DNA from: Prosthecobacter debontii
GTDB lineage: Bacteria > Verrucomicrobiota > Verrucomicrobiia > Verrucomicrobiales > Verrucomicrobiaceae
NCBI GenBank assembly: GCA_945860295.1
Contig: CAMAQH010000002.1
Coordinates: 164,394 to 228,393 of the forward strand
DNA length: 64,000 bases
Reading direction: 5' to 3'
Shown piece by piece: positions 13,270 to 40,647 of the stretch; position 1 is the first letter of the stretch; the number at the start of each line of letters is the position of its first letter. The translations under genes were made by a program, and so were the position numbers. A model generated the notes under the pieces. The model had not been told where the DNA came from, did no database searches, and worked only from the letters and a program-made list of their open reading frames with translations.

Positions 13270-13962
13270 CTAAGCGCCTACCGCGTCTGCACGCTTGTTT
13301 TTGCCAAAGCGGATGTCTTGCGCCCTTTCGATGAAGATTGTGTCCTCACAGATGTTTTTTGCATGGTCACCTACACGCTCAAGAAAGCGTGCCACAAATA
13401 TGAGGTGAAGGTAGCCTTCGAGCGGTGCCTGACGCTCTTCCATGACTTGCAGCAATGAACTGTCAAAAGCCTTCTCGGCAGCATCAAGCAGTTTGTCAGC
13501 CAAACGAGCTTGTGCAGCGGCATCAGGATCGGCATCCGTAAATGCCTGCATGCTGCTCTCTAGATTGCGAGCGCAGAGATGATAGACCGGCTCAATAAGT
13601 TTCAACTCGGCAATCTCGGGCAGATTGTTGATGTTGCGTGCTCGTTTGGCGATGCCGCAGGCCTGATCGGAGATACGTTCGAGATTGTTGGCGATGCGGA
13701 CGGTGCCCATCACCTGACGGAGGTCGTGGGCGGTGGGCTGAAATTTCAGAAGAATCTGCATCCCAAGCTGATCGATGTTTTTCTCCAGATCGTTCACGTC
13801 CTGGTCCGCAGCGATGGCCGCATTGCAGAGATCCGAGTCGCGTTCCATGAGCCCACGCATAGCACTGGCGAGATTTTTTCGTGCCATGCTGGCCATCGTT
13901 AGCACCTGTTCACGGAGGCTGGTGAGGGCGGCGTTGAAGGAAGTCAAAATGTGGTCATGCAT
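13270..13962 (-). CDS. phoU: Phosphate signalling regulator PhoU
   Basis: Two PhoU repeats: DLRQVMGTVRIANNLERISD and ARFLERVGDHAKNICED. Confidence 0.92.
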   Translation of the reverse strand: MHDHILTSFNAALTSLREQVLTMASMARKNLASAMRGLMERDSDLCNAAIAADQDVNDLEKNIDQLGMQILLKFQPTAHDLRQVMGTVRIANNLERISDQACGIAKRARNINNLPEIAELKLIEPVYHLCARNLESSMQAFTDADPDAAAQARLADKLLDAAEKAFDSSLLQVMEERQAPLEGYLHLIFVARFLERVGDHAKNICEDTIFIERAQDIRFGKNKRADAVGA

Positions 13963-13985
13963 ATCTGGGACAGGATTTCCCTAGG

Positions 13986-14876
13986 TTACATGGGCAACGT
14001 CACATTTTCGACGCTTAATTTCACCTCGTTTGTCACACTCACACTCTTGATCGATCCCTTAGGCTGACGGTTCGTCCGCTGGCAGAAATCGTCATAAGAG
14101 ATGACTTCAAAGTCGCCGTTGTCATGCTCCAAAATGGCGGTCATGGACTCGACCCAGTCCCCAGAGTTAAGGTAGTGAGTCTCACCGACCATCTTATTGG
14201 CAGGGCTATGGATATGCCCGCAGATGATGCCCTTACAATTCCTGGCTCGTGCCAATTCCTGGAGTTGCTCCTCATATTTGCTGACGAAGCTCACGGCGGA
14301 TTTCACTTTGAGCTTCACCCAGCGGCTGAGTGAGAAGTTCTCCTTCCCACGGGCAAGACGATACCAATTGTAGATCCGGTTCACGCGCAAAAGGATGTTG
14401 TAACCAACACCGCCGAGCTTGGCGATCCACGGGTGGTTCGTCGTCACATGATCAAACCCGTCGCCATGCACGACAAGGTAGTCACCACGCTTGGTGTGGT
14501 GGATGTGTTCATTGGTGATGAGAAAATTGTCGAGCTGGATGGGAATGAACCGGTCGAGAATGTCATCGTGATTGCCGCGTAAATAAAGGATTTCGGTGCT
14601 CTCCTTCTCCATCTTCTTGAGCACAGTGCGCAGAAAATGGGTGTGTGACTTGTTCCAGCCGCCTGAGCTTTTTAAATACCACGCATCGATGATGTCGCCG
14701 TTCATGATCAGTCGGTCACATTGGACGTGACGAATGAAATGGGAGACCTGTGCCGCTTTGCAGTCCGGCATACCAAGATGAACATCAGAAATAAAGACCG
14801 TGCGTACGCGCAGCTTTAATTTCGAACGGGAAGGATCAGCCGGTGCATCTGGGGTATCGTCGATTTCTTCACTCAT
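13986..14876 (-). CDS. PlcP-like metallophosphoesterase (often annotated as UDP-2,3-diacylglucosamine hydrolase family); probable phospholipase C for lipid remodelling
   Basis: FISDVHLG, GDIIDAW, GNHDD, VHGDGFD, CGHIH and NSGDWVES motifs. The overall layout matches the PlcP family and the gene sits beside a GT4 gene and phoU. Confidence 0.8.
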   Translation of the reverse strand: MSEEIDDTPDAPADPSRSKLKLRVRTVFISDVHLGMPDCKAAQVSHFIRHVQCDRLIMNGDIIDAWYLKSSGGWNKSHTHFLRTVLKKMEKESTEILYLRGNHDDILDRFIPIQLDNFLITNEHIHHTKRGDYLVVHGDGFDHVTTNHPWIAKLGGVGYNILLRVNRIYNWYRLARGKENFSLSRWVKLKVKSAVSFVSKYEEQLQELARARNCKGIICGHIHSPANKMVGETHYLNSGDWVESMTAILEHDNGDFEVISYDDFCQRTNRQPKGSIKSVSVTNEVKLSVENVTLPM

Positions 14877-16009
14877 GATTGGGATAGGGTAGGTTTATTA
14901 GTCTGCACCGCGAAAAGTTCACCTTCAAACTGCTCGATGACACGCCGCCAGCCAAACTCGCTGACCGAATCGCAAGCCGCAGCACGCATCGCGGAATCAG
15001 ACCAGCTCGCTGCTGACTGACGCAGAGCGCCGAGAAAGGCGGCTTCATCATCAAAGGCAGCCAGCCAGCCATTTTCACCGGATCGGATGACCTGACGCGC
15101 TGCCGCATAGTCATAGGCAACGGGCAGCAAGCCGCTGGACATGGCTTCCAGCACCACATTGCCGAAGGTCTCGCTGATACTGGGAAAAATAAACACGTCC
15201 GCACTGGCATAGCACTCAGCGAGTTCGGTGCCAGTTTTTGACCCAACATAGAGACACTCTGGGTGCTCACTTTGCAGTGCTTTGAGCCGAGGGCCGTCAC
15301 CCACGACGACACAGGGCGCCTTCGGGTGCATTTCTCTAAATGCCGCGAAGCCTTGCAGAAGCAGCGACAAATTTTTTTCGGCAGCGACGCGCCCCACGTA
15401 GACTGCGACAGGCGTCGAGTCATCAACTCCCCACTCAGCTCTAAGGGCGGCGCTGCGCCGAGTTGGATTAAAAAGTTCGGTGTCCACGCCACGCCCGAGA
15501 ACGCCGACATTCTTAATGCCCCACTTTTCGAGCATCGCCGCCGTATCGGCACTCGGTGTCAGTGTGCGTGCCGTTTGGTTATGGATGCTGCGGAGAAATC
15601 CCTGCGCTAGGGCTTCAAGGCCCGGCAGATAATAGTCTTCGAGGTAGGATTGAAAATTCGTGTGAAAGCCAGAGACCACGGGGATTTCCATCTTCGATGC
15701 CGCGCGAATACTGGCAATGCCCAGCGGCGTCTCTGTGGCCACATAAATAACGTCTGGCCTGAATCGCTCATAGAGTCCCTGCATCTGCCAAGTCGTCGAG
15801 ATACCCATCCGCAGCCCTGGATAACCGGGCAGCGGCAGTGCCATCATGACGTGTCTTTTCAGCGACTCCTCACCCTGCCCTGCGGCCAGGGTGGTCACGA
15901 TCTCCACTTCATGCCCGCGTGCAGCTAGACCACCCGCGAGGGTGAAAAGCGTGCGTGACACTCCATTGATGTCTGGTGGGTAAGTGTCGGTGATGAGCAG
16001 CAATCTCAT
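14873..16009 (-). CDS. GT4 glycosyltransferase, Agt-like glycolipid (glycosyl-diacylglycerol) synthase candidate
   Basis: ITDTYPPDINGVSRTL, GFHTNF, YVGRVAAEKN and ETFGNVVLEAM (E-X7-E) motifs. Overlaps the plcP-like start by 4 nt. Confidence 0.85.
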   Translation of the reverse strand: MRLLLITDTYPPDINGVSRTLFTLAGGLAARGHEVEIVTTLAAGQGEESLKRHVMMALPLPGYPGLRMGISTTWQMQGLYERFRPDVIYVATETPLGIASIRAASKMEIPVVSGFHTNFQSYLEDYYLPGLEALAQGFLRSIHNQTARTLTPSADTAAMLEKWGIKNVGVLGRGVDTELFNPTRRSAALRAEWGVDDSTPVAVYVGRVAAEKNLSLLLQGFAAFREMHPKAPCVVVGDGPRLKALQSEHPECLYVGSKTGTELAECYASADVFIFPSISETFGNVVLEAMSSGLLPVAYDYAAARQVIRSGENGWLAAFDDEAAFLGALRQSAASWSDSAMRAAACDSVSEFGWRRVIEQFEGELFAVQTNKPTLSQS

Positions 16010-16107
16010 GTGTGCATGAACTAGTGGTACTTCACCCTTACAGAAAGCAGATTTTATGGCTAACAAAACGTGCCTGCGTGACGAATGCGTCACTGGAAAA
16101 ATGCCTC

Positions 16108-17826
16108 CTATTTAAACACAACGTCCACACCCATGGCGCTCTTGGAGGCGAACCCAGGAATCCAGTGCGGTTTACGCGTTGCGATCAGGCGATAAATCAG
16201 TGACAACCCACTGAGCACGATAAGCCGATCCACCATGCGGTAGCCACGCTGACGCCGCATGAGAAATTGAATAGCCCAGGCAAGATGCTTGGGGTTGAGC
16301 AGCAGCGGTTTAAAATCTGTCTTGATGCGATAACGCGCACGCAGGCCACGCTTGGCATACTTCAATTTGTACGCAGCTTTGGCCGCGACGATGCGCTCCT
16401 CGATATCAGGTGCATCCTCTGCAAAGTAGTATTCACGCGAGAGTGCTAGAAGGTGAAACGTGTCACGCATGTAACCAATATCAGCCACGGAGACGCCGGC
16501 ACGCTCGGCAAGCGGCAGCATGCGGTCCAGATTGTCCATGCAGCGCTGGGCACTGCGCAGCGCGCTATCGGCATCCCGGACAAAGTAGCGCAGCAGTCGC
16601 CTCAGACTATGACTGATGAAGATGTTTCCCCAATAGACCTGCAACATCGGCGGGATGCGCACGCGCCGAAAAAAGAGCTTTTGTCGCGCATACTCCTCGA
16701 TGTAGAGCAGCTCGCGGATGCATTCGTCAGATAGGCGCAGGAGCTCTAGCAGAGCATCTGCATCACCCAGATGACGCTCTTTGACAAAGTCCCGCACAGC
16801 ATCTTCAACAAGCGCTCCGTGCCTCATAACACGGATGGTAACAAAGGTATTGAGATCAGTCCATAGCGCTTCGGGATCGAGGAAGGCCAGCCGACGAAAA
16901 GGCACCCAACCACCCGTCTGCGCCCAGACCATGCAACCGATGACGTTCTCAGCCTGACGCAGCTCACGCGCATACTGTTCGTAGAGCCAGCCCGTGAAAC
17001 TGGGGTACTCGCCACAGCCCTCATACTCACGCCGCGTTTGTAGTTCCACGATCTTGGCTAGGGGTGTGCGGAAGAAGTTTCGATTCAGCGGCAGGTAGCG
17101 GAAAAAGTCAGTCTCGCCATACTTCATCGACACAACAAGGGCTGGGCTAGTGAGTCCCGCAAACACCCGCTTGAAGGTATCCCGGTGCCACATCAGATCT
17201 CCAATGGCATAAGCTCCCACGGTCCAGGTGCGGAAGATCAGCCGCCGACCATGCTTCTCAAAAACAGGCAGTAGCGCCTGCAAAAACGCGCGCGCATCTT
17301 GGGGAGTTTTGATAACGAGCTGACTTTGAAAGTCATCCCGCACGTCTTTACCATCTGACTCGCCAATGCGCACGATCACGCCCATGACATCGGGGAAGTC
17401 GGTGAAGAACCGATCCAGCAAATCACACAGATAGTCATTCACACTGGTGCGGTTCATATCCATCCGCCTCAGCAATTCTGGCGTTGCCGAAAAGACATCC
17501 ATCGTCACATGCAGGCTGAGACCAGCGCAGTGCAGCACTTCAAAGCAGCGCCGCATCTCTGTGCGGTAGCGCTGGATTCTGTGCCGAACCTCAGGCTCGA
17601 GCCAGTCGTGATCAGCCAGATGTGCCACATCATCGATGGAAGCCGCATTGAATCCCCAGCTTGCTGCCTGCAAGGCCAGCACGTTTAGCTCACTGCAAAC
17701 AGTTTCCCACCAGGCCGAACCCTGACTGCCCGCGTGATCCCAGGGGATCTTCGACCAGTTGATAACACGCCGATCATAGCCGCGAAAAAACGGGCCGATG
17801 GTGTCGATGAGATGGAGTTCAGTCAC
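16108..17826 (-). CDS. Hypothetical protein with GH67 alpha-glucuronidase-like motif order
   Basis: 572-aa ORF with GTG start. FPDVMGVIVRIGE, LIFRTW, SMKYGETDFF and ELQTRREYEG parallel recalled GH67 segments. Not verified by search. Confidence 0.55.
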   Translation of the reverse strand: MTELHLIDTIGPFFRGYDRRVINWSKIPWDHAGSQGSAWWETVCSELNVLALQAASWGFNAASIDDVAHLADHDWLEPEVRHRIQRYRTEMRRCFEVLHCAGLSLHVTMDVFSATPELLRRMDMNRTSVNDYLCDLLDRFFTDFPDVMGVIVRIGESDGKDVRDDFQSQLVIKTPQDARAFLQALLPVFEKHGRRLIFRTWTVGAYAIGDLMWHRDTFKRVFAGLTSPALVVSMKYGETDFFRYLPLNRNFFRTPLAKIVELQTRREYEGCGEYPSFTGWLYEQYARELRQAENVIGCMVWAQTGGWVPFRRLAFLDPEALWTDLNTFVTIRVMRHGALVEDAVRDFVKERHLGDADALLELLRLSDECIRELLYIEEYARQKLFFRRVRIPPMLQVYWGNIFISHSLRRLLRYFVRDADSALRSAQRCMDNLDRMLPLAERAGVSVADIGYMRDTFHLLALSREYYFAEDAPDIEERIVAAKAAYKLKYAKRGLRARYRIKTDFKPLLLNPKHLAWAIQFLMRRQRGYRMVDRLIVLSGLSLIYRLIATRKPHWIPGFASKSAMGVDVVFK

Positions 17827-18010
17827 GAGATTGGTCGGTCCAAAGTGAGTTAAGAGTATGCCAAATCAACCCTTTCTTCGCAATGCCTTTGCGCAGAGCT
17901 CGCCTGATGTTGCTGATAAGTTTAGCGACGCTGGCATAGGCTTTAAGTTCGTTAGAACGCTTCGGTAATGGCAGGGCATCAGCTAGCTTCTTGGCCCGTG
18001 GTCGTGGCAT
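17819..18010 (-). CDS. Possible small basic protein (63 aa)
   Basis: MPRPRAKK... Lys/Arg-rich ORF whose stop overlaps the next start by 8 nt. No family recognised. Confidence 0.3.
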   Translation of the reverse strand: MPRPRAKKLADALPLPKRSNELKAYASVAKLISNIRRALRKGIAKKGLIWHTLNSLWTDQSRD

Positions 18011-18370
18011 TACGATACCAGAGCTGCCCACCACCCAAGCCGCCGCCAATGTGGAGGCGGAAGCCTGCTGGTCATTTTTTCATACGTTCACGAAAGCGAT
18101 AGCGATCCAGTGCTAAAGTTCCCATGGAATTGAAAACCACTCAGTTCATCCGGGCCCGATAACCAGCGGCAGGCCCCGCAGTGCTTTTGCCCCACTCATC
18201 CGCAAGCCTGGAAGCACCTCTCCGATGCTTTGACAAAAAGCTGCCAGTCCACAAAGGCGCGACAATCGTTTTACGAGTATGAATAGCGCAGCACTCAACG
18301 ATGAAATCTACCCATGCTTTCTGCTGCCCGCCTCTTATCTGACACTTCCGTCACCCGATAGGGTCGGCGT

Positions 18371-18388
18371 GTGACGCAGTCGTCACCA
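18371..18388 (+). promoter_or_regulatory. Candidate Pho-box-like site upstream of phoB
   Basis: GTGACGCAGTCGTCACCA, with half-sites 11 bp apart. A weaker copy CTGAC-N6-GTCAC lies at 18339-18354. Confidence 0.55.
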
Positions 18389-18408
18389 AGAACGACTTGT
18401 CTTTGCTT

Positions 18409-18417
18409 TGTTATACT
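18409..18417 (+). promoter_or_regulatory. Extended -10 promoter element
   Basis: TGTTATACT (TGn + TATACT) 19 nt upstream of the phoB ATG. Confidence 0.45.
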
Positions 18418-18435
18418 ACGTAAACAAATATCATT

Positions 18436-19137
18436 ATGAGCAAAATATTAGTGGTCGATGACGAGCCGGATATTTCGGAGCTAATCTCACTGCATCTGAT
18501 GCGTGAAGGGCACGACTGCCTCTGCATCACCAACGGCCTACAAGTCATGCCCACCGTGCTGGAGCAGCAGCCAGACCTCGTCGTGCTTGACATCATGCTT
18601 CCGGGCCAAGATGGCATGACCGCATTCAAGCGCCTCCGTGGTGACAGCCGCACCCGCAGCGTGCCCGTCATTATGCTCACCGCCAAAGCTCAGATCACAG
18701 ACAAGATCAACGGGCTCGAACTCGGTGCTGACGACTATCTGACGAAACCCTTCTCACCGCGCGAATTGGCTCTGCGCATCAGTGCCATTTTGCGCCGCAC
18801 CAAGAAAGTCACTCATGTCTCAGAAGTGAAGAACGGAGCCTTCCTGTTGGACCGCAAGAACATGAAGTTCTTCCACAACGACACCACCATCGACCTAACC
18901 ACCACCGAGTTTAAGCTCCTGGCCGTCCTGCTGGAAAACACCAGTGCCGTTCATACTCGTAGCGAACTCTTGCGTGAGGTTTGGGGCTACTCTGACGATG
19001 TGGCCACCCGCACACTCGACACTCACATCAAACGTCTGCGTGAAAAATTAGGCGCTGCGGGCAAGCATGTCGTCACCGTGCGTGGAACGGGTTATCAGTT
19101 TGTGGTCAACCCCACAGATATTGCTGCCGCCGCTTGA
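18436..19137 (+). CDS. phoB: OmpR/PhoB-family response regulator, probably PhoB
   Basis: Receiver domain (VVDDE, LDIMLPG, KPF) and winged helix (RTLDTHIKRLREKLG, TVRGTGY). Context of phoU and a phoR-like kinase supports PhoB. Confidence 0.8.
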   Translation: MSKILVVDDEPDISELISLHLMREGHDCLCITNGLQVMPTVLEQQPDLVVLDIMLPGQDGMTAFKRLRGDSRTRSVPVIMLTAKAQITDKINGLELGADDYLTKPFSPRELALRISAILRRTKKVTHVSEVKNGAFLLDRKNMKFFHNDTTIDLTTTEFKLLAVLLENTSAVHTRSELLREVWGYSDDVATRTLDTHIKRLREKLGAAGKHVVTVRGTGYQFVVNPTDIAAAA

Positions 19138-19246: not shown

Positions 19247-20464
19247 ATGAATATTACTCTCAGCATCGCAATCATCGCCCTCATCGTGTGGGCATGGTGG
19301 CGCGAGAAAATGTGGCGTAGCAGCGTTGAAAAAGTCACCCACGCGGCTGGGCTCAAGACCTTCGAGGCCGACAAGCTCGCTGCGCTTTTTGTTGGCCTTA
19401 AAGAGGCCAATCATGCGCTCGTCAAAGAAGAATACCTGCGCCGCTTGTTTGAGGCTTTACTCAACGAGATCCGCCAAGGTGTGGCTATCGTCGATGATGA
19501 GATGCGCATCAAATTCTCTAATCGCACGCTGGCGCACCTTTTTCAGAAGACTCGCATCCATCGCGGTCGCATGCTCATTGAGGAGCTTCAGGACCATCAA
19601 ATCACCGATGTCGTCCAAAGTGCGCTCAAAGAGCAACGCCGCATCGTGCGCGAGATCGAGCTTTCCAACAGTACTAGCCTGACGAGTCGCTATTACCTCA
19701 TCGAAGCCGCGCCCCTGCCTGCCAAGGCGGAAAGCGGTGCGTGGCTCATGGTGCATGACATCACCGAGCAAACGATGGCCGAGCAGATCCGCAAAGATTT
19801 CGTCGCCAATGCCTCCCACGAACTGCGCACTCCGCTGACACTCATCAATGGTTATGTTGAAACCCTGCAAAGCGGTGTGCTCAAGGACGCGGCCACCATC
19901 CAGCGCTGCTACGACGTCATGGAAAAACATGGCAAGCGCATCGTCCGCATCATTGAGGACATGCTCACCATCTCGAGGCTTGAGAATGGTAACTCGGCGC
20001 TAAACATCGAGCCCTTCACCGCCCGTGCCTGCATGCAGGACTCACTGGACCAGCTCGCCCCCATGCTTCAACAGCGTGATGCACGCATCGATCTCGACTT
20101 GCCGGCCGATGGCGGGCACATGCGCGGAGATCGTTTTTATTGGGATCAGGTCTTCAGCAATCTCATTGAAAACTCGCTCAAAGAGAACCCCAACCCAGGT
20201 CTCGTCATCAAGATCACGGGCAAGTGGTTCGCCGATCACATTCTACTCACCGTCAGTGACAACGGCATCGGCATCGCCACTCACGACCTGCCCTTTGTTT
20301 TCAAACGCTTCTACCGTGGTCACAAACACCACAGTCCGCAGATCAAAGGCACCGGCCTGGGCCTCAGCATCGTCCGCCGCGCCATTGAAGCCCACGGCGG
20401 AACCATCGGCCTCACTAGCACTCCCGGAGTTGAGACCACGTTCACGATGCGAGTGCCCGTTTAG
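19247..20464 (+). CDS. phoR: PhoR-like sensor histidine kinase
   Basis: N-terminal TM, PAS-like region, H-box DFVANASHELRTPLT, and N/G boxes (NLIENS, VSDNGIGI, GTGLGL). Confidence 0.8.
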   Translation: MNITLSIAIIALIVWAWWREKMWRSSVEKVTHAAGLKTFEADKLAALFVGLKEANHALVKEEYLRRLFEALLNEIRQGVAIVDDEMRIKFSNRTLAHLFQKTRIHRGRMLIEELQDHQITDVVQSALKEQRRIVREIELSNSTSLTSRYYLIEAAPLPAKAESGAWLMVHDITEQTMAEQIRKDFVANASHELRTPLTLINGYVETLQSGVLKDAATIQRCYDVMEKHGKRIVRIIEDMLTISRLENGNSALNIEPFTARACMQDSLDQLAPMLQQRDARIDLDLPADGGHMRGDRFYWDQVFSNLIENSLKENPNPGLVIKITGKWFADHILLTVSDNGIGIATHDLPFVFKRFYRGHKHHSPQIKGTGLGLSIVRRAIEAHGGTIGLTSTPGVETTFTMRVPV

Positions 20465-20501: not shown

Positions 20502-23500
20502 CTAGAGCTGCGCGGTGACTTTCTTTTTCTTTGTCTCATCGTCATCACTGCCACCACCATAACCTAGGATTTCGACGCTGATGACAGAGAGAGGCTTGGA
20601 TTCCCCTGATTTCTGCTGCTCACCTCCCTGAGGTTTAGCAGCAGCCGTATTGGTGGCAGCACCCGAGGAGGCCGCTGCTGCAAGGCCACCCATGCTTGGG
20701 GATGAAACAGACGGGGCGGATGGTGCGCCACTAGTACTTCCAGAGGCCTGAATATTGCCGGCATTGAGAACGACGCTAGCTGCGATGTTAAGATTCCCTG
20801 TAGCGCGAATACCAGCGTCACCCGCATCCACAGCACCGATCGGGGCAATCAGGTCGATATTGGAAGGCTTGAGAATACCGACTGTAGCCAGAGCCCCGAT
20901 ACCGCCCCCAGTCGCCAAGCCAGCTAGGTCAGTGGTGACATTGGCGCTTTGTGGATCAATCAACACACGCGTTGGAGGAGCCGATTGAACCGTTTTTGCG
21001 GATGAGCCCGCAGCAATGTCACCGGAGGATGACCAGATGCTGATATCGCCGCCTTTGAGGGTGAAGATTCGGGAAATCCCCAGATCAACGCTGTCATCAG
21101 TGAAGATGGAAATGTTTCCACCCGATTCAGTAACAATCCCTGGAGGTGCCAGTTGCTGACCAATCACCGTCGGTGAAAGGGCAAGTCCACCGTCTGTAGA
21201 GAGCAGCGTGATGTCACCACCACTGCGGGTGCGGATGTCACGGGCTTGGGTAAAGATGCCACCCGCAGACTTGGTAGGCAAGAGCGCTTTGACGGCATTG
21301 AAACCAGCTTCATAGGAGCGGAAATTGACACTGTCTGGGTTATTGTAATCACGCCCAGCATCCCTCAAGACAAGGTTGTAAACTGAGAGTGTCAGCTGCT
21401 TCTGTTGTTCCAGAGTCAGGAGCGGATCTTGGAGGTTAAGTCGTTTATTACCAGGCGTGATATCAAGCTCAATTGTGAGATCGTCCCGTAGAACCGTGAT
21501 CTTCGTGCTCTCGCCGACTTTCATTCCATAAGACAAGTAGCTGTCATCGTAATTTCCGTTCACCTCTTTGCCTGCGATTTTCAAAATGGTATCACCTGGC
21601 TGAATACCGGCCAATTGAGCAGCTCCACCAGAATTGACGGAACTGACTTGAATACCCTCAGCTTCAGTCTTCGAAGGATCCTGCGTCAAACCTAGAATGC
21701 CAACAGCCTCAGCGAGATAGCGCTCACCTCCTGGAACAGAGATAACCTGTGTGATGAATTGATTAAAGTTCGCTGCGCTGTCGCTCAGACCCACAGCAGC
21801 ATTGCCCATGCCTGCGGCAACGAAGATGTCGGAGCCTTCAAAAGGCAGATACGGATTACGGCCGTTGCCGATGCTGGTGATGCCCACGCCAGTCCCATCT
21901 GGATTGTTGGAACCGGTGCCGAGATCGATGTTACGTCCTGCTAGCACTTGGAGAGTACCAGGACCACTGATTTGAATATCCCCCGCCAACGGGTCTTCAC
22001 CCAAGCCAACAACATTTCCAAGGCTCCGCGAATTGACACGCTGTGGCGTATTCGCATTGTAGGCGATGAGGTCGCGCCCAGCGGAAACAAGAGAAAGATC
22101 ACTGGCGCGGTTGTTCTGCAAATACAGCGAGACATCTGAAACATCGAGACCGCCGATGACTCGAGCCGATTTGGCTGAAAAGACTGTCAGTCCATTGATG
22201 GATCCGCTGTTGGCATAAATATAGACCGGAGAAGTGTCGTCGGCATGCAGAAGGCCAGCTGCGTGGAGTGCCTGCTTGGCTTGAAGGGCTGCTTTTGATC
22301 CCGTTGTGGACCCAGTTTCTAGGAAAAGACTGTCAATTCCCGCCAGGAAATTGTCACGCGTGGCATTGGCCGAGGTCGATGTTCTTGATGGCATCAGATT
22401 CTGGTAGGCAAAGGGTGTGTTCAAACCTGGTATTGCGTCTGGATTGGCATCCGACAAATTGATCCGACCTGCGCCCCAAACCGTTTGCCTGACACCGTTA
22501 AGCGTCGTCGATCCATTAGCATTCAAGCCACTGATAGCGCCAGACACGAATAATTCTAAAGCACCTTGCGAAGAGGGTGACAAATTTAAACTTCCTATCA
22601 CACTTAAATCACCTGCGAAGGCCGTCACTCGCAGCGCACCTGGAAGCAAACTGGCGGAGGCAGTGAAAGGTCGCACACTGCTTTCGACCAGCTTCAACCA
22701 AGGTTGATAGAAAGAGGAGCTGGCACCACCATTCGCACCTGTACTGGCTCCGAGCAGTTGGTGATTTTGGTACCAAGCTTGGATAATTGGCACTGATGTG
22801 CCAACCGTTCCTGGGGAAGGAAGCGTGATGCTCGACCGCAAGGTCACGTCTCCGGCAAGGGAGGTAACATTGACACTACTATCTGCAGCATAAGTGGAGA
22901 AGTAAGTCTTGTACCAATAACTATTGCTGTAGCCTTGGGGTAACAAAGAGACATTGGCCACAGGACCTAAAAGCACATCACCTCGTGCATTGATATTGAA
23001 GCTACTTTTACCGGCAAATAGAGTTGTCGGCATCCAAGTTTGCTCTGCCAACAGACTTGGAGTTGTGAATGAACTAATATAATTGAGAGAGGCTGAGCGT
23101 GTGCTGTTGGTGCGGATGGAATCCCCCGCCGCAAGGGTGCCTGTGCCGCGCTCCACATAATAAACACCAGCATCAATGTTGCGGCCCGATCGCACGATCA
23201 AATCACCACCGCCAAGCTCGATGAGATTGTTCGCCTTCGGCGCGATGGCAGTGCCAAGACTGTCCTTGCCCTGCATCCGCGCATTGGTCGGCACCACGGC
23301 ATCGACATTGCTGATATCCCGACCAGCAATCAAGGTCACATTACCACCGCCCAAAGCTCCGACACTCTGGAAGAAATTGCTGAAGTCCACCCACCAACTG
23401 GTGGATGCAATGTCTGTGCTCAACGTTGTATGATAACGTGATCGGGCAAAGAAACCCGAAACAGGATCAACGGCACCACGACGATATAGCCAATTGGTCG

Positions 23501-26500
23501 GCAATTGCCGTCTGGACTCAGCAACCAATTGATTAGCTATGTTACGCGTCAATTGAGTGACATCTCCCTGGGCATTGATGGTGACATTGCCACCTGCCAT
23601 TGAGTATTGGGCTGGGTAACGTGGAGACTGCTGGTTTGCCCCAAGACTTCCAGCAGCTGAGGTTAGGGTGCTCATATCAGGACGCGGCACATCAAACGTG
23701 CCTCCCAACATTGCATTCTCCACAGCAGTCCCTGCGGTATAGATGGAGGCGAACACATTTAGAAACTGCACGTCCCTACCTGAGGCTATGTCGATGTTAC
23801 CAGACCCGGTTCGGATGACCTGGAAACGCCCCGTGGTGGCGGTGGGATTGACGACCAGAGCAGTGGTCGCGGTCGCCCCAGGAATCGTGGCAATGGCGGC
23901 CCCTGCATTGCGACCGATCTGAAGCGAGCCTTTGTCCGTCGCCAGCGCCGTCTGGGACTGTACCTGATGGAAATCCACGGCGTTAAAGTCCGAACCTGCC
24001 GCAAGCCGGTAGGACCAGGATTGCAGATTGGAGGGCAAGGATGCGTTGAAGGCTAGCAGCGCAGAGTTATAGGCACCGGTGGTGAAGCCATCGTTAAGAC
24101 TGTTAAAGAAGACCATATTGCCTGCCGCACGCATGGTGAGGATACCCGGCACGCTCTTGGGACCAAATCTGGCCGTAGCAAGATTCCAGTCACCAGCGGC
24201 AATGGTGGAGGTGTTCGTTCCCAGGGTCAGATCACCGGCGCGGTTGATGACTTCCGCTCCAGGCACAAGGAAGAACTGAGAGCGCAGACCATTGTTCGAG
24301 GCGAGGAGACGGTCGGTGATGGTGTTGGTGTTGCCAGTGAAGGTGGTGGCGTTTGAGGTGATGCTGGTCAGTGCCGCTGCATTGAGCGTGCCGCTTGTCG
24401 GAGTAAAAATCTTGTAGCCTTCAGCCGTGATCAGCGAGGCACCGGTAATCTGTGCGTTGATCGCGTTCATTTGCAGCTCATCGGCGGCGGCATTCTGCGG
24501 CGCGCGCAGATTCAGAGTGCCGGTGTTCAGGCCCCAAGCAGCACTGCCCGCGAAAGCGATGTCACCGTCACCAGACAAGGTGACGCTTATCGCGCCGATG
24601 AGGCTGGTGGGTGTGTTCGCCGCCAGATTGATCGTGCTGCCATTGGTCAGAGTGACAATACCAGCCTGGGTGGCCGTGATCGTGTCGTAACCGTTGAGAT
24701 TGGCAGGAACATTGATCGCGGTATTGGCGACGGCATTCAGCGTGCTGCCAGCGATGTTGGTCGCCACGGAAAGGTCGATTTGTGAGCCTGTTTGCAGATC
24801 AAGCAAGGCACTGGTGCTCAAAATGCCGTCACGCTGCGAGCCAGCCATGAGCGAGATGGAGCCACCCTTACCCGCCCGGTCAAATTTTTGCGCCGCTGCT
24901 GTGATGCTTGCCGTGCTGGTGAGGGTGACGCTTTCAGCGGCCTGCAAGGTCACGCTGCCACCGGTGACACCTGAGGCATTGATCAAGCCGGTCACCGTGA
25001 TGCCGCCACGGTCCGCAGAGAGATCGAAGACGTTGGCCGTGGTGGTGCCGTCCACGAGCACATCACCATTGAGCACACGAATGCTGCGTGAGCCATTCAA
25101 TCCGGCGTTGTTGAGGGTGGCACTGAGTGCTCCCAGTATCGGCAGATTACCAGCAGTGAGGACGAAGGAGCCAGCTTGTCCGCCGGTGCCTCCGGTGCCG
25201 CTCAGCGTGCCGCCCAAATTGAGCGTGCCAGTGGTGGTCGTGACGGCGAGTGTTCCTGCATTCCCAGCCGCCGCATTGGCGGCGATGTTCACAAAGCTGC
25301 CTGCAAGCAAGTTCACCGAGCCGCCAGAAGAAATCAGGTCGATGCGGCCACCGTCGGTGTACTTGATCTGATCAAAGAAAGTCTGTGCGGTTCCGCCGAC
25401 ATTGAGTTTGCCAGACACATCGAGATTTCCCGAGGTCGTTGCTAGCGTGAGCTTGCCGCTGGGCAGCACGATGTCGCTGCCGACGCTCATGGATGAAGCT
25501 GACAAACTCAGAGTGGCACCGAGTCCGCCGATGATCGGAGTGCCCGATGCAGCGGCTAGCGTCATGCTCCCGCCTGCACTGATGGCTTGTGCGGAGAAGG
25601 CATCGCCTGCGATGACGGGCGTCGTGGCGTTGAATGCTCCCTGGACGATGAGGCTGCCCGCACCCTGACCGAGGATGCCTTTGGAGGCGGTGACATTGAC
25701 GTTCGCAAATTGGTCGATCCTCAGCGTGTTCGCGCCGAGGCGTAGTGTGTCTGCCTGCAAAGCCAGGGTGCCGTTCATGCCCGTGACAGCCCCGGGAACA
25801 GTGCCTGAGGCAAAGTTGTCGAGCAGCAGGTTCTGAGCGGCGAGCGTCACGGTGCCGCCGCCGTTATTGAAGCCACGGAGTTCACCAGCACGCAGCGAAA
25901 GGGCGGTCGTCGTCAATGCTGATCCGATCTGGCCGGTGCCATAGAAGTCGATGGATGAATAGCTAAGCAAGGCCAGCGATTTGGTATTCTGGATACTCTG
26001 CAAGGCGGTGCCTGTCAGGACGAGTCCTGGGTTTGCCTCAAGCGCCCCCGGATTGGTCAACTGCAGACTGATGCGACTGCTGTTGATGTTTAGTGTCTGC
26101 CCGGCCAAGACTGCCGCAGGGTCGATATTCATGACACTTGTGGAGTCCAAGGTCAGGCTGGTGCCCGTGAGGTTCACGCCAGCGCCGATCGTCAAAGCAG
26201 GTCCAGCGGCGGTCGTCACGCCAGAGCGCAGCATTTGGGCACTGGCATCAGCAGACACGCGCAGCAGAGCGCCGTTCCCGCTAACTGAGAGCGTGTCCGC
26301 GGCAGATGCCAGCGTGCCAGTCTGGGTGATGGTGGCACCGGCATTGAGCGTGATATTGCCCGTCGCCGCGAGGATGAGTTCCGGCATGGCGAGCGGTGAC
26401 ACGGCGGAATTGGCCAAAGTGATATTAGTGGCACTCGTGGTGAGAAGTGTCCCTGCAGTGGTCGTGTTGCGCTGGCCGCCGATTAGGAGGCTGGAAGAAC

Positions 26501-29500
26501 CAAAGGCACTGAGCTGCCCGGCATCAAGCACGAGCACGCCAGAAGCGGCAGTCGTTCCGGTTGAAGCGATGAGAATGTCCGACGGGCTGCTGATGTCGAT
26601 GGCGGCACCACGTCCAATTTGCTCGATTTTAGTGACTCCATCCTTAGTGACCTCGATACTATAGCCACTGCCTCTGACCTGACCGAGTAATGTCATTTGA
26701 TTCACGGCCTGGAGCAGCAAGCGTCCAGCATCGACTGGCACAAGAGGTGCGGCCAGGTTCAGCGCAGCAGCGCGCTGCTTGAGGAAAGTGTTGGCCGAGT
26801 AATCTTCATAGTTCACGCGCTTGTCCACGACCGATCCAGGCGCCACCTCGAAGCTAGAGTAGAGCCCTGGGTTTTGCGCATTTGGATTGAGGGAGTTAAA
26901 CCGATATCCAGAGACTAGCGAAGCACCACCGGGTATGACCACTGAGCCTAATGGCTCGCCAGTTTTAGGTGTGACGAGAAACGCGCCACTGAGCAAAGCA
27001 TAACGAGCTGGCAACAACGTATAATTACCACTCTGTAAACCACTGCCTCCATTGAGATAAATGCGGTCGCCTGCATGCAAGGTGCTGTTTCGATAACCTG
27101 ACTGTGAACTAGCCAGGTTCAACGTACTGTTGGTCTCATTGAAACGTCCAAAGGGCGCATAATCCGCCGTATAATTCGGCAAGATGGCAAAGCTGCCTTC
27201 ACTCTCAAGAATATCCAACGTGCCTCCGGTGCCCTTCAGCCAGCGGAAGGCATACAAGTCACCGCCACCACGCAGATCAACCACTGAATTAGCTTCCGAA
27301 TTGATGCTCAGTGCTGAAGTATTCACTGCTTTTACAGCTAAACCACCACCCGAGATATCGACACCTTGGGGATCAATCCAGTTTAAACCATCGCTGCTGA
27401 ATCCATAAGGTATCACAATGCCAAGTCCCGTGATCGGATCGATCTGAGACACAGAGGTGCGGCTACCAGTGAGCATGTTTAAATTCGCCGTCGTTGGCAA
27501 AGAAACACCTCCTTGAATGCCCGCTCCAGAGAGTAGATCCAGGGGACTAGCACCTCGGCCATCCCAGCCAAGATTGATGATCCCTGCTGGAGCAACAAGA
27601 GTGCCGCCTTGATTGATCGTATGGGCATAGACATTCAGCGTGCCCCCAGCAGATAGCGGCAGGCCGCGCACACCCGAAGACTCAAAGGTAATCGAACCAC
27701 GCTGCTGACCTGAACCATTCGTATAATCATAGGCCGCTATGGTAAACGTTGAAGCGGTCGGCGTGTAAATTTGACCGGCACGCATGATGATGTCTCCAGC
27801 AATATTCAAACTACCACTGCCGCGAATGTCGCCGTTATTTGCCACGAACTCTGCGCTTCCAGTATTTTGCAATGACAGGAAGCCGATATCAATGGTTCCT
27901 GCGTTGACATTCAAACTTCCTGCGCCGTGCGCTGGACTAACAAAAAATGGACTGCCTTGGGTGAAGGCATAAATCTCGTCCTGCTGAGACTGCATTGGCA
28001 CGCGAAAAGCCTGACCTAAGCTCACGTAAGTAGCATTCAAACTCACTGCCGCATCTGAAGTGAAAATGCCACCCGTAGCCACATGCAGACTTGCCGCAGC
28101 TGACAATGTCACAGGACCTGAGAACTGCACGTTCCCACGGAGCGTCAGTGAATCGAATCCCCCATTCGTGAAACTGTTCGCCTTGAAATAACCCTGAGAG
28201 ATTACCGCAGCCCCACCTGAATCACGCACTACTCGTCCTATGGCATTGCCGCCCGCTGAATAAATGGGCGCTGGGATTGAGAGCGTATTTTGAGTAACCC
28301 ATAGATCGATGTCGTTCGGTGAACTGCCAATGCCAGGTAAATAAAAGCGTCCCGAGGATACCTCCAGGGTTCCACCAGCTGCGTTGCTTCCGCCCCGCTC
28401 AGCACTGAGCAAAGCATCGACAAAGAGCATTTGACCACCTTTGAGGGTAATGGTTCCGCCTTGGCTGTCTAATTTTACCGGCGTGCTAACAGCCCCATTA
28501 TATATGGGCGTCGTTGAGCCACTCGTTACGGGAATCGAAAAAGCTCCATTGAGGAACCCAGCTTCTCCTGGGGTTAAATCTAGGGTACCACTGGTTCCTG
28601 ATGCATCCAAGACAGCACCTATCTCGGCTACGATATTCCCACTCACATTGATCGTTCCACCTGCTAAAACGCTACCTTTCCGCAGACCAAACGCATTGGG
28701 CAATAGAAGGGTCTTACCAGCCGTCGAAAGAAGACTGGTCGGCGCAAGATTGACCGTTACAAAAGCATTCATTGGCACGTCATCAAACGAAGCAAACCTA
28801 TTTGCACCTGAAATTGAAATGGCACCGCCAGGCGAAATCACGGTTCCTGCCACTGCCACGGTCTCTCCTTCAAAATTGACGGCACCTAAAGCATCCGTTT
28901 TGATAACGGCATCTTTCTCCATGATGATCTCTCCACGCACTACTAGCTTAGAAGCAAACTGATCAAGCACGCCTGTAGCTTTAAAGTTCAATGAGACTGT
29001 ATTACGCAAGCCTTCCTGTCGGGTGAAAACTTTTAGCAAGGAGCTCTGATCCTGAGGCGTCGGATTCAATTCCCAACCTTTCACAATAGGAGTGATTTGT
29101 GTGCCTGCCGAAATCAAGATCGCAGGGGAAAATTCACCCAATACAAGCGTGGGCCGACCAAGACCAGCCATCGTAAACGAGCTGAACCCCCCCTGATTAA
29201 AGAAGTCGGGTGTAAGCAGCAGGGTTTCTGCATTCGTTGCAGTTCCTCCAACCTGAATCGCCGGAGCTTGGATCGTAAGCGCTCCACCTTGAGCTCCCGA
29301 AAATCCACGCAGCTCAGCACCCAACGTTAAACCACCGCCAAGGACCCCTAGCACATTCACATCCTGACCAGATTTGAGACTCATCGTTCCTGCATCTCCA
29401 TAGGTCACTACAGGCGAGTTTTTGAGCCGGGCTCCGCCGGAAACATCCAGAATCCCACCTGCAGCAAGGGTCACTCCCATCGCGTTGATGGAGATATTAC

Positions 29501-32285: not shown

Positions 32286-32296
32286 AAGAATGAGAA

Positions 32297-33211
32297 TCAG
32301 GGTTTAACTGCGGCCCCCGAAGTGGGGCGTAAAACCAGCAGCTTTGAGACAGCCAGTTCGTTGATCACCACGGGTGTTTCCTGCAACTTTTTCGATAGAT
32401 AGTCCTGCGTGCCTGTGCGGCCCCGCTCACCGCGCAGCGTTCTCACCAGATCCGCGCGCACTTGGTCCAGCGTTGGGACAAAGGGCTGGCGCGCATCGAG
32501 CACTTTCACGAAATGCCAGCCGTCCTCAAGTCGCAGAGCCTCAGAAACATCATTGAATTTCAGCTCCGGCAGTTTGGCGAAAATCTCAGGCTGAATCTGT
32601 AACTGCGTGAGCCAGCCGATCACACCACCACGCGCAGCGCTCTCACGCTCCTCACTGTGCTCACGGGCGACGGCGGCGAAGTCGCTCTCCGGCGCACGCA
32701 CGAGTTCGCGGACCTTATCAAGCCGTGTGCGTGCGGCTGTGGCAGCCTGCTTGTCCTGGCCTTTGGGATCAGAGATGAAAATCTGCGCCAGATGAAACGA
32801 TTGCGGCATCGCCAAAGTCGCACGGCGGGATTCATAGGCGCTCTTCAGTTCGGCTTCGTTCGGGTAGCTCTCGGGCGGCTGGGCCACTGCCCTCAAATAG
32901 GAATCTGTGATGGCGGTATCACGGGCCTGACGAATGCGGTCGATAACTTCTGGCCGCTCGTCCCATTTCTTTTCCAGCGCCTCACGCAGCACCAGACGCT
33001 GAATCATCAGTGAGCGCACCAGCTTGGTCAAAGCAGCGGGATCACGCATCAAGGCAGCGCGTTCTTCCTCGGTCAGTTGATTGAGCGTCGGCAGCACCAC
33101 ATCTGCCTTCACGTCCTCATCCCCAAGACGTCCGAGCACCACATCCGCAGGCTCTTGAGCCTGCAACATCAGGCAGAGCAACCCAAGGAAAGAGCAGAGA
33201 AACGGCTTCAT
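32297..33211 (-). CDS. PpiC-type (rotamase) peptidyl-prolyl isomerase/periplasmic chaperone
   Basis: FHLAQIFI, FAAVAREHSEE...GGVIGW and GWHFVKV motifs; signal peptide. Confidence 0.88.
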   Translation of the reverse strand: MKPFLCSFLGLLCLMLQAQEPADVVLGRLGDEDVKADVVLPTLNQLTEEERAALMRDPAALTKLVRSLMIQRLVLREALEKKWDERPEVIDRIRQARDTAITDSYLRAVAQPPESYPNEAELKSAYESRRATLAMPQSFHLAQIFISDPKGQDKQAATAARTRLDKVRELVRAPESDFAAVAREHSEERESAARGGVIGWLTQLQIQPEIFAKLPELKFNDVSEALRLEDGWHFVKVLDARQPFVPTLDQVRADLVRTLRGERGRTGTQDYLSKKLQETPVVINELAVSKLLVLRPTSGAAVKP

Positions 33212-33909
33212 CGGCTGGGTTTGGCTGGCGCAGGAGTCGCTGCAGGAGTCTGTGCGGCGGCTGTCTTCTTCGGATCTTCCGGCTGGATCTTCTGATCGGT
33301 GAGCTTGTCTTTGTAGTCCTGCACTAGCCCTTCCAGCTTCACGCGCGTCAGCCTTGTGAAAGGCTCGCGCGCGGCGATCGCGGTGCCGAGACCGAAGCTT
33401 TCATAGCGAGTCAGCACTTCACTGCCGGTCTTGTACAATTCATCGTTCTTGCGGTAGTAGTCTGCCACCCGGCGCTCCAGAACGATCACCTTGTCCGCAA
33501 GCTTCATGCGCTCGGCTTCTTTGCCTTTGGCCACTTCTTCCATCTTCAAGTAGCCGACCTTCCACTTGGCAAGTGATTCATCAAGCTTCGCGATTTCGGC
33601 GGTCTGTTCACTGCCCTTTTCCTTGAGATCAGTGATGGTCTTTTCGGCAGCAGTACGGTCACTGGCGCTCTGCTTGACGAGTGCTCCGAGCTTCTTGGTG
33701 AGATCAGCATTCTTCGACTCCAGGTCGATTTTTTCTGCCTGCAAAGCAGCGCGGTCCGCCTCAGTTTTCTGCTGCAAGATCATCGTCGTGCGCAGGGAAT
33801 CACGCATGCGCTTGAGGACGGCCATGGCGGGATCCTCCGCCTCTTCGGCGTTTGATTTGATGGCGCTGAAGGCCAGTGCGGCCATGAGGAAACAGATGGA
33901 TTTTTTCAT
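33208..33909 (-). CDS. Exported coiled-coil protein
   Basis: Signal peptide followed by a long heptad-rich helix. 4-nt overlap with the PPIase gene. Confidence 0.7.
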   Translation of the reverse strand: MKKSICFLMAALAFSAIKSNAEEAEDPAMAVLKRMRDSLRTTMILQQKTEADRAALQAEKIDLESKNADLTKKLGALVKQSASDRTAAEKTITDLKEKGSEQTAEIAKLDESLAKWKVGYLKMEEVAKGKEAERMKLADKVIVLERRVADYYRKNDELYKTGSEVLTRYESFGLGTAIAAREPFTRLTRVKLEGLVQDYKDKLTDQKIQPEDPKKTAAAQTPAATPAPAKPSR

Positions 33910-33911
33910 GA

Positions 33912-35819: not shown

Positions 35820-35846
35820 GGAATGGTAGGAGAAATTCAAAACAGA

Positions 35847-36545
35847 TCAGGGCTTGCGCAGGGTGAGGCGCATTTTAACTGGCATGGGCTTGGGTGGGTC
35901 AGGCGGCAGTTCGTTCAGGTCAAGGCCGACGACGGCCTCACTAATGGCCGCGTCCACTGCGGGATCGCCTATGCTGCCGTTGAGGGATGCTTTGGTGATG
36001 CGCCCTGTGGCGTCTAACCAGATTTGTATGATGACGCTGCCTTCAGCCGTTTTAGTGATGTTGTTCCGGCTCAGCGCTGCTTGGATTCGGCTCGACATCA
36101 CGCCTTGATACCTGCCCCAGGCTGACCCGGTTCCGCCACCACCGCCACCGATGCCGCGGCCACCGCCACCACCACCGCCAATGGATAAACCATCGCCAGG
36201 GCCATTACCGACGAGTGCGGTACCCAGGGGTTCGTCCTTTGGTGCATCAGGTTTGTTATCTGGCTTCTCCGGGGGTTCTTCCTCCGGCTGCTCCATCTTC
36301 TCTTCTTCTTCCGGCGGCGGCTCTTCTTTCTTCGGTGGCGGCGGCGGTGGTGGTGGAGGCGGTGGCATGATAGGCATCACCATGACCATTTCCATTTTCT
36401 TTTTAGGCTTGGTTTCTTTGGATGGTTTTGAGGTCATGGCAAAATAGCCACCCCCAGCCAGCACTAAGGCGCCAACGATGATCATCACGAGATTGCGCCG
36501 GAAAAATCCGGGTTCGTCTTCGTCGTCTAAATCGTTAGCACTCAT
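35847..36545 (-). CDS. TonB-like energy transducer
   Basis: Single TM, poly-Pro/Glu linker, Gly-rich spacer and a TonB C-terminal-like domain (IQIWLDATGRI). Confidence 0.8.
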   Translation of the reverse strand: MSANDLDDEDEPGFFRRNLVMIIVGALVLAGGGYFAMTSKPSKETKPKKKMEMVMVMPIMPPPPPPPPPPPKKEEPPPEEEEKMEQPEEEPPEKPDNKPDAPKDEPLGTALVGNGPGDGLSIGGGGGGGRGIGGGGGGTGSAWGRYQGVMSSRIQAALSRNNITKTAEGSVIIQIWLDATGRITKASLNGSIGDPAVDAAISEAVVGLDLNELPPDPPKPMPVKMRLTLRKP

Positions 36546-36559
36546 GAATCAAAAACTCG

Positions 36560-36961
36560 TTATTTTTTGGACTGCGTCGCCAAGCCAACATGGGTGACAC
36601 CCGCACGACCAACGGCATTCAAAGCATCCATGATGAGCTGGTAGTTGGCATTGCTGTCACCACGGATCACCACGGGCACGTCGGGAGTGGCAGCGACGAT
36701 AGCCTCCATTTTGGTGCCCAACTCTTCAATCGTCACAGCCGTGGCATTCAGCTTGATGTTACCTTGATCGTCGATCGTGACGGCCTGCATTTTCGGGCCT
36801 TCGATGGGTGTCGAGGTCGCAGCGCCGCCGCGCGGTAGCTTGACTTTAACTCCCTGCACACCCGCTGTGGTCATGATGATAAAGATCAACAGGAGCACGA
36901 GGTAGAGATCCACCATCGGCGTGACGTTGATGTCGTCGTAAGATTTGCTGTCAGCTTGCAT
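36560..36961 (-). CDS. exbD: ExbD/TolR biopolymer transport protein
   Basis: INVTPMVDLYLVLLLIFII with the conserved TM Asp; VIRGD..NYQ motif. Confidence 0.92.
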   Translation of the reverse strand: MQADSKSYDDINVTPMVDLYLVLLLIFIIMTTAGVQGVKVKLPRGGAATSTPIEGPKMQAVTIDDQGNIKLNATAVTIEELGTKMEAIVAATPDVPVVIRGDSNANYQLIMDALNAVGRAGVTHVGLATQSKK

Positions 36962-36967
36962 GGAGGT

Positions 36968-38803: not shown

Positions 38804-38845
38804 GAGTGAAGCGTGGTTTAGGAGTGGTGAAAAAAGTCGGGGAGA

Positions 38846-40562: not shown

Positions 40563-40580
40563 TGGTGACGATTGTGTCAC
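40563..40580 (-). promoter_or_regulatory. Candidate Pho-box-like site upstream of the tpsB operon
   Basis: Minus strand GTGACACAATCGTCACCA, 16/18 identical to the site upstream of phoB. A weaker copy lies at 40626-40641. Confidence 0.55.
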
Positions 40581-40647
40581 CAAGTTGCTCCGTTCACCGA
40601 TATCCACCCTGAATTTCCATCTTTTGTGTCGTTACCGTCACTTGTTT

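Follow-up and report, generated by a model that had tools for sequence, protein, structure and literature searches.

We describe a 16-bp palindromic element, GTGAC-N6-GTCAC, which very probably serves freshwater Verrucomicrobiaceae as phosphate-starvation operator (Pho box) and as the site of their local PhoB-type regulator. This reading comes from a comparison of the element within a 64-kb stretch of DNA (the window), throughout the 4.68-Mb genome to which it belongs, and in relatives. The source is a lake-water metagenome-assembled genome of the Verrucomicrobiaceae, and in a sequence search the DNA of the window was matched in lake and river DNA metagenomes only, with no RNA run among the matches. 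In the window, the box stands ahead of three operons, which encode the regulator with its sensor kinase (phoBR-like), a lipid-remodelling gene pair with PhoU, and a two-partner secretion (TPS) system with a giant TpsA protein.

Results

Boxes in the window exceed chance expectation

The boxes found in the window are as follows, each given in the direction of transcription.

18371-18388, + strand: strong box, 18-mer GTGACGCAGTCGTCACCA, upstream of the gene for a 233-aa regulator
18371-18386, + strand: promoter-proximal core of this box, GTGACGCAGTCGTCAC, 50 nt upstream of the ATG at 18436
18339-18354, + strand: weaker upstream box CTGACACTTCCGTCAC, 9 of 10 core positions matched
40580-40563, - strand: strong box, 18-mer GTGACACAATCGTCACCA, upstream of a 551-aa gene (tpsB)
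40565-40580, - strand: promoter-proximal box of tpsB, GTGACACAATCGTCAC, 64 nt upstream of the ATG at 40501
40641-40626, - strand: weaker distal box GTGACGGTAACGACAC, 9 of 10 core positions matched
16078-16093, - strand: third exact GTGAC-N6-GTCAC copy, GTGACGCATTCGTCAC (GTGACGAATGCGTCAC on the phoB strand), found by pattern search

The original prediction had described the two 18-mers as 16/18 identical in the direction of transcription, each with a weaker partner upstream; all four sites are present, the identity is as described, and the statement that the core lies one base away from GTCAY-N6-GTCAY in an 11-bp register is accurate. The exact copy at 16078-16093 is additional to these. By our own arithmetic, many pairs of 18-mers with 16/18 identity are expected by chance in 64 kb, and it is the palindrome, not this identity, that exceeds chance. 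The exact pattern occurs three times in the window, compared with about 0.07 expected from base composition, and when one mismatch was allowed, nine sites were found against 2.09 ± 1.63 in shuffled sequences, none of the 100 shuffles reaching nine. Genome-wide, 12 exact copies were counted where base composition predicts about 5. When four half-site arrangements were compared at spacings of 3 to 9 over the whole genome, the inverted N6 form gave the most intergenic matches (42, with 21.8% of its matches intergenic, against roughly 10% for most others), and N6, which places the pentamer starts 11 bp apart, was the only spacing enriched among intergenic matches. Likewise, 9 of the 24 genome sites matching GTGACG-N4-CGTCAC with at most one mismatch are intergenic, in a genome of which about 9-13% is intergenic according to our own crude open reading frame (ORF) call. 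The shuffles and the genome-wide counts thus exclude a chance origin of the box.

The box is conserved ahead of orthologous genes

The closest relatives of the regulator were found in Brevifollis and Prosthecobacter genomes and in Verrucomicrobiaceae metagenome bins. The culturable Brevifollis gellanilyticus NBRC 108608 (locus L038) is among the relatives with these boxes. In all 45 family loci with upstream sequence, a box precedes the ATG of the orthologous regulator by 62-80 nt amid diverged flanks; every one of these boxes matches at least 8 of the 10 core positions, and 44 match at least 9. The weaker box at 18339-18354 is kept as CTGAC-N6-GTCAC in the closest relatives (L013, L014, L015 and L074), and its CCGTCAC half in L019 and L021. 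Conservation extends to other promoters. A site with at least 9/10 matches lies within 350 nt upstream of 12 of 17 tpsB orthologues, which come from other genera and share 52-56% identity, and some of these (L100, L102, L103, L109 and L112) also have a second upstream site. Boxes precede 13 of 17 pstS orthologues, mostly as GTGACGTTTTGTTCAC about 45 nt ahead of the start, and 10 of 18 btaA orthologues, against a background of 0.07 sites per 300 nt in these loci. Three complete related genomes contain 5-8 exact copies of GTGACR-N4-YGTCAC each, compared with 1-2 of a reversed control pattern. Among the exact copies inspected in complete relatives, 10 of 15 are intergenic, with mixed neighbours, both phosphate-related and unrelated, and in two of these genomes exact boxes front an OmpR-family regulator (G020) and PhoU (G003).

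In more than 30 relatives, the regulator-kinase pair is transcribed divergently from an operon of a GT4 glycosyltransferase, the phosphoesterase PlcP and PhoU, with one box per promoter; the second box lies about 50-60 bp from the first and is often identical to the 16078 sequence of the window. In one locus (L052), phoU itself is directly divergent from the regulator. Judged from the loci compared, this divergent layout is ancestral. The regulator is the best PhoB match of its genome and lies divergent from the phoU operon in these relatives. The original prediction that the box is the binding site of this local PhoB is strongly supported by comparison, namely by the conservation at the regulator, at GT4-plcP-phoU, and at tpsB, pstS and btaA in relatives, and by a box ahead of a PhoX-nuclease gene in the genome studied here.

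Outside the typical pattern, three Rubritalea loci (L054, L055 and L058) have GTGACA-N4-TTGCCAC upstream of the orthologous regulator. An everted GTCAC-N6-GTGAC stands at this position in Persicirhabdus (loci L056 and L057 belong to other Verrucomicrobiales).

The box is an inverted repeat with polarity

We aligned 51 non-redundant sites from four promoter classes, oriented by the direction of transcription, and obtained the consensus GTGAC-R-n-A/T-A/T-T-C-GTCAC. The centre bases of the pentamers are G in the distal and C in the proximal half in 44 of the 51 sites, so that the sites are inverted and not direct repeats of the CTGTCAT type known from the Escherichia coli Pho box, direct-type sites being a minority. 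The matrix of the left pentamer correlates at 0.99 with the inverted right pentamer and at 0.75 with the direct one, and the inner flanks are mirrored as well (GTGACG....CGTCAC). The symmetry is not complete, as T occupies position 10 in 39 of the 51 sites and the mirrored A at position 7 is found in only 4, and the T-C-GTCAC side is always the gene-proximal one. On this side of the box, C-GTCAC follows an A/T-rich spacer and agrees with a classical PhoB unit in sequence, register and orientation; the distal half departs from this proximal one only at the centre base.

It had also been suggested that one palindrome could serve both divergent promoters. This idea is contradicted by the polarity of the box and by the relatives, in which the divergent genes each have their own box of opposite polarity; in the window, moreover, no divergent gene begins less than 500 bp from the phoB boxes.

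At all three promoters in the window, TTG comes 10 nt after the box (TTGTCT at phoB, TTTGTT at GT4 and TTGAGG at tpsB). As a general architecture, box-N10-TTG was rejected, since it fails at the btaA, PhoX-nuclease, pgsA and TPR-gene sites described below.

Operons behind the boxes of the window

The genes and promoter-like elements are listed below.

18397-18425, + strand: predicted promoter-like elements, TTGTCT 10 nt past the box, a 17-nt spacer and GTAAAC
18436-19137, + strand: OmpR/PhoB-family response regulator, 233 aa (Pfam Response_reg and Trans_reg_C)
19247-20464, + strand: PAS-HisKA-HATPase sensor kinase, 405 aa, PhoR/PnpS-like (Pfam, NCBIfam)
13270-16009, - strand: operon of GT4 glycosyltransferase (Agt-like), metallophosphoesterase (PlcP-like) and PhoU, behind the 16078 box
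20502-40501, - strand: tpsB operon with tpsB, exbB, exbD, tonB, a Porin_5 protein, a 233-aa ORF, a peptidyl-prolyl isomerase and a 3927-aa TpsA
45507-45522, + strand: possible further box GTGACTCTTTCGACAC in the usual polarity, about 70 nt before ATG 45591, where the gene for a 589-aa membrane protein probably has its true start

The top NCBIfam family of the regulator is TIGR02154 (PhoB; 234.8 bits), and it is the best of four PhoB matches in the genome. It is paired with an adjacent PAS-HisKA kinase of the PhoR type, whose best matches are PnpS (273.7 bits) and phoR_proteo (229.3 bits), and it is linked to phoU. The weaker box at 18339-18354 is 32 bp from the strong box, centre to centre, which corresponds to about three helical turns. 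TTTG and GTAAAC-like elements recur in the regulator orthologues, the latter about 17 nt further on than the TTG. The sequence AGTCGT...ACGACT, with a T-rich run behind it, could form a terminator-like hairpin at 18378-18397, in overlap with the proximal box and its spacer. This hairpin was rejected as a terminator and is probably fortuitous because the stem is lost in orthologues, e.g. L016. A search of 15900-18500 against Rfam gave no match.

From the 16078 box it is about 70 nt downstream to the ATG near 16009, the likely start of GT4, and the stop of a 572-aa ORF precedes the box by 15 nt. The metallophosphoesterase is of the calcineurin type according to the domain search, and PhoU scores 159.2 with TIGR02135, above the cut-off of 130.25. 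A GT4 gene beside a PlcP-type phosphoesterase gene is a known lipid-remodelling pair of phosphate starvation, and PlcP/Agt and btaAB are lipid-remodelling genes associated with Pho boxes (PMC4796936). The 572-aa ORF (16108-17826, - strand) stands between the GT4 operon and phoBR, an arrangement seen in this genome only. It has no match in Pfam or NCBIfam and, by tblastn, no homologue in 46 related phoB loci, and no box was found near its own start at 17826. The GT4 box in this genome has stayed with GT4.

In the secretion operon, TTGAGG begins 10 nt past the proximal box of tpsB, and the weaker box at 40626-40641 is located 61 bp upstream of the strong one, 7 nt past the stop of a 253-aa ORF. 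Its exbB carries DUF2341 and LamG domains, and TpsA carries TPS, PDZ and DUF3739 domains. The 589-aa membrane protein behind the possible further box has no Pfam match.

Boxes elsewhere in the genome

The genome was also scanned with a position weight matrix. Only the top matches are informative; for the seed sites the scan is circular, and matches scoring under about 16 bits are mostly coding-region noise. Besides the phoBR and phoU operons, boxes precede btaA/btaB, a PhoX-nuclease gene and pgsA. For example, an intergenic box lies ahead of a DUF3419 (BtaA-type) gene and an S-adenosylmethionine-dependent methyltransferase gene (btaA/btaB), DUF3419 being the BtaA/BTA1 betaine-lipid synthase domain (PMC10685587). 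Two boxes stand ahead of a gene whose 2126-aa product combines a PhoX alkaline phosphatase domain with Exo_endo_phos and Endonuclease_1 (Endonuclease I) domains, and further intergenic boxes precede the genes of a subtilase with a lamin-tail domain, a TPR protein and a PAS kinase. Lower-scoring and uncertain sites were found at genes for a DUF1501 protein, pyruvate phosphate dikinase and a major facilitator superfamily transporter, and at pyrR. A weaker box-like site with a score in the noise range (contig C4:188151-188166, L097) lies between a gene with a prepilin-type N-methylation motif and pyruvate phosphate dikinase; pyrophosphate-dependent enzymes are plausible phosphate-sparing targets.

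On contig C4 at 94098-94113 (locus L003), a strong box, TTGACGTTTTCGTCAC, precedes a good TTGACA-18-TAACAA promoter by 16 nt. This promoter belongs to pgsA, whose product, phosphatidylglycerophosphate synthase, scores above its cut-off. The position of this box beside a good promoter suggests that phospholipid synthesis itself may be under Pho control, with an architecture unlike that of the activated promoters.

The pst operon lies on another contig than the genes of the window. It contains two tandem pstB genes (contig C12:85549-87129), which exceed the cut-off of TIGR00972 with 376 and 371 bits. A box-like site, GTGACAATTGCTTCAC, at C12:90315-90330 falls within pstS near its 3' end, and the next pst gene, a 624-aa permease ORF, begins 122 nt downstream of it. 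The site could be an internal promoter or chance. Just downstream of pstSCAB-B, an orphan OmpR-like response regulator is encoded (C12:83916-84650; L092:3917-4651; OmpR 212 bits). It was considered as the true PhoB and rejected, because its best match is OmpR, no kinase is adjacent and its neighbour is prfB.

Discussion

From the conservation of the box and the genes behind it, we infer that the local PhoB-type regulator binds it and that binding activates transcription. Under phosphate limitation, the PhoR-like kinase (19247-20464) would phosphorylate the PhoB-like regulator (18436-19137), a dimer of which would bind the two pentamers one helical turn apart in the 11-bp register. With its proximal edge about 10 nt upstream of the -35-like TTG, the bound dimer would then activate transcription. 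In the window, three operons are predicted targets. The regulator would act on its own phoBR operon, where the weaker box at a distance of three turns upstream may aid autoregulation, on the glycolipid/PlcP/PhoU operon, and on tpsB-exbBD-tonB-porin-tpsA. The betaine-lipid genes, the PhoX-nuclease gene and probably pgsA, all outside the window, would be controlled in the same way.

The Pho box of E. coli is CTGTCAT-N4-CTGTCAY, which is bound head-to-tail by phosphorylated PhoB. Like it, the box described here consists of two short units one helical turn apart, in the 11-bp register with an A/T-rich spacer; its proximal C-GTCAC is one base away from TGTCAC in the same direction, and it is found upstream of phoBR (autoregulated), phoU, pstS (in relatives only), a phosphatase/nuclease gene and genes for phosphorus-free lipids. 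Unlike it, the distal unit is mostly GTGAC instead of GTCAC, which gives an inverted core, the box seems not to take the place of the -35-like TTG, which stands 10 nt downstream, the phylum differs, and the regulator scores under the curated PhoB cut-off. In sequence, the inverted core resembles the site of RegX3 more than the direct repeat of E. coli. RegX3, of the mycobacterial SenX3-RegX3 system, recognizes an inverted GTGAAC repeat separated by 5-7 nt (Glover et al. 2007, as cited in PMC7525159). The two systems would have in common an OmpR/PhoB-family phosphate-starvation regulator that recognizes an inverted repeat. The near-identical inverted half-sites (GTGA(A)C/GT(T)CAC), with GTGACGTTTTGTTCAC at pstS of the relatives, and the position at the regulator's own operon fit an operator of the RegX3 type, but half-site length and spacing differ by one base, the half-sites here being mostly 5-mers at a fixed N6 and those of RegX3 6-mers at variable spacing. 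In addition, the box here has a conserved polarity. RegX3 is among the three closest solved structures to our regulator (2oqr, E 2e-43), although the proteins are only family-level relatives, and because the phyla are unrelated, the resemblance may be convergent or ancestral. Staphylococcus aureus ArlR binds an inverted repeat (PMC6868441), and Helicobacter pylori HP1043 has been modelled head-to-head (PMC8345958). Both are winged-helix response regulators with sites readable as inverted repeats one helical turn apart, but their regulons and half-site sequences are different and HP1043 is independent of phosphorylation, so that they are a precedent for the geometry only.

With regard to this geometry, the anatomy of the sites leads us to lean towards a true inverted repeat with the two DNA-binding domains in symmetric position, the mode reported for RegX3, over the head-to-tail mode of E. 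coli PhoB. The same operator and regulator might instead work in the canonical head-to-tail mode, with a GTSAC unit at an 11-bp period, a centre base that is barely read and a palindrome that is incidental; we regard this as a serious possibility, though somewhat short of probable. It is favoured by the proximal half with its spacer, which agrees with the E. coli CTGTCAY unit in orientation and register, by the polarity of the box, and by the direct repeats that most OmpR/PhoB regulators bind (PMC6868441, PMC8345958). Direct-type variants, which speak against a strict palindrome, point in the same direction: GTCAC-N6-GTCAC at three tpsB orthologues, GTGAC-N6-GTGAC at four btaA orthologues, and a canonical-looking GTCACATTTCTGTCAC (GTCAC-N6-GTCAC) upstream of the regulator in a Verrucomicrobiales bin (L056). 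However, the opposite centre bases G and C, which prevail in all four promoter classes together (44/51), are not expected of identical tandem monomers, and the mirrored inner flanks, the pentamer correlations and the enrichment of the inverted N6 arrangement among intergenic matches likewise argue for a symmetric site.

Perfect palindromes are typical of classical helix-turn-helix dimers, and a different homodimeric transcription factor might bind the palindrome and co-regulate phosphate-stress genes while the local response regulator recognizes something else. The box-free pstS of this genome, with its TTCA repeats, and the orphan OmpR-like regulator beside the pst operon could be taken in this sense. 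We consider this unlikely, since the box always occupies the autoregulatory position of the phoB-like operon (45/45 loci), occurs at pstS in relatives and has a half-site one base away from those of PhoB and RegX3, and the boxes have no consistent link to any other regulator gene. Palindromic sites of the CRP/FNR type read TGTGA-N6-TCACA (or TTGAT-N4-ATCAA). A site of this type was rejected, as the TGTGA and TCAC blocks are 8 nt apart here and this spacing, unfit for CRP or FNR, is fixed in all conserved sites. It is still far less probable that the similarity is fortuitous or that the element is an RNA hairpin or terminator rather than a DNA operator. This explanation could draw on the 16/18 identity, which alone is not significant in 64 kb, on the hairpin that overlaps the box at 18378-18397 and on the possible pairing of GUGACG with CGUCAC. 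Against it, chance is ruled out by the counts given above, the half-site sequence is conserved while the centre is free, single-sided changes (GTGTC, GTTCAC, GACAC) break the pairing without compensation, the 18378-18397 stem is lost in orthologues, and the Rfam search of 15900-18500 gave no match. It is already close to refuted.

Several observations weigh against the interpretation of the box as the Pho operator bound by this regulator, and the main piece of evidence that does not fit is the pstS gene of this genome. The 79 bp ahead of it, which are at the same time the upstream region of a divergent FKBP-type isomerase gene (contig C12:91094-91172; locus L092/L120), contain no box. This region has TTCA three times at an exact 11-bp period (TTCAT, TTCAC, TTCAG), and relatives have GTGACGTTTTGTTCAC at the equivalent place. 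Some high-scoring sites adjoin genes without an obvious link to phosphate, namely those of the TPR protein, the PAS kinase and pyrR in this genome and transketolase and CorA in relatives. The regulator, with 234.8 bits, is under the curated TIGR02154 equivalog cut-off of 296.2 bits, which only 2 of 14 well-known genomes passed in a control search, and the PnpS and phoR_proteo scores of the kinase are both under their cut-offs. Sigma-70 scans of the three promoter regions in the window detected no consensus promoter, and the activator position centred near -53 and the promoter positions are therefore only predictions. Finally, the sites in relatives were collected with a symmetric matcher, and the relatives share ancestry. 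The fractions of loci with sites are thus not independent trials, and independent events are fewer than the counts suggest. Despite this kinship, conserved boxes stand out clearly against diverged flanks.

The operator in front of tpsB invites comparison with Pseudomonas aeruginosa, in which the genes are ordered pdtA-phdA-pdtB-exbB2-exbD2-tonB4-PA0696 (porin) and pdtA expression needs sigma-VreI/VreR and PhoB (PMC7035377). By gene content, each cluster has a two-partner secretion pair together with an ExbB-ExbD-TonB set of its own and a putative porin; phosphate starvation controls the one in P. aeruginosa and, as predicted from the box, would control the one here. In P. aeruginosa, an extracytoplasmic function (ECF) sigma factor acts downstream of PhoB, whereas control here would be direct; the Pho-type box immediately precedes tpsB, and genes like vreAIR were not seen. 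This box, kept across genera of the Verrucomicrobiaceae, fits a phosphate-starvation cue for such machinery in a second phylum. We would tentatively join the two lines of evidence and propose, as something possible rather than probable, that a PhoB-family regulator of the Planctomycetes-Verrucomicrobia-Chlamydiae (PVC) group acts on a true inverted repeat, which together with RegX3 would make the symmetric geometry a recurrent and perhaps ancient one, and that direct phosphate-starvation control of a TpsB/TpsA-ExbBD-TonB-porin set is common to the Verrucomicrobiaceae and Pseudomonas (pdtAB-exbB2D2-tonB4). If so, the TPS/TonB machine would be primarily a surface device for phosphorus acquisition or phosphorus stress, and not a virulence factor.

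In conclusion, the Pho box as a kind of element is known; new here is one with an inverted-repeat core, in a phylum for which we found no described Pho box in the searchable literature on Verrucomicrobia. A near-perfect inverted repeat at a PhoB-type regulator offers a clean natural case for tandem versus symmetric DNA binding in the OmpR/PhoB family. Phosphorus limits growth in most lakes, and the Verrucomicrobiaceae are common in freshwater while their regulation has hardly been studied. With a defined operator, the phosphate-starvation regulon can be read family-wide from genomes and metagenomes, and it appears to include glycolipid and betaine-lipid substitution, PhoU, PstS, the PhoX-nuclease and pgsA. 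In addition, the operon of the giant TpsA fibre with its private TonB motor gains a physiological cue, phosphate limitation, under which the function of this machine, unexplained for the equivalent gene set in P. aeruginosa, becomes testable.

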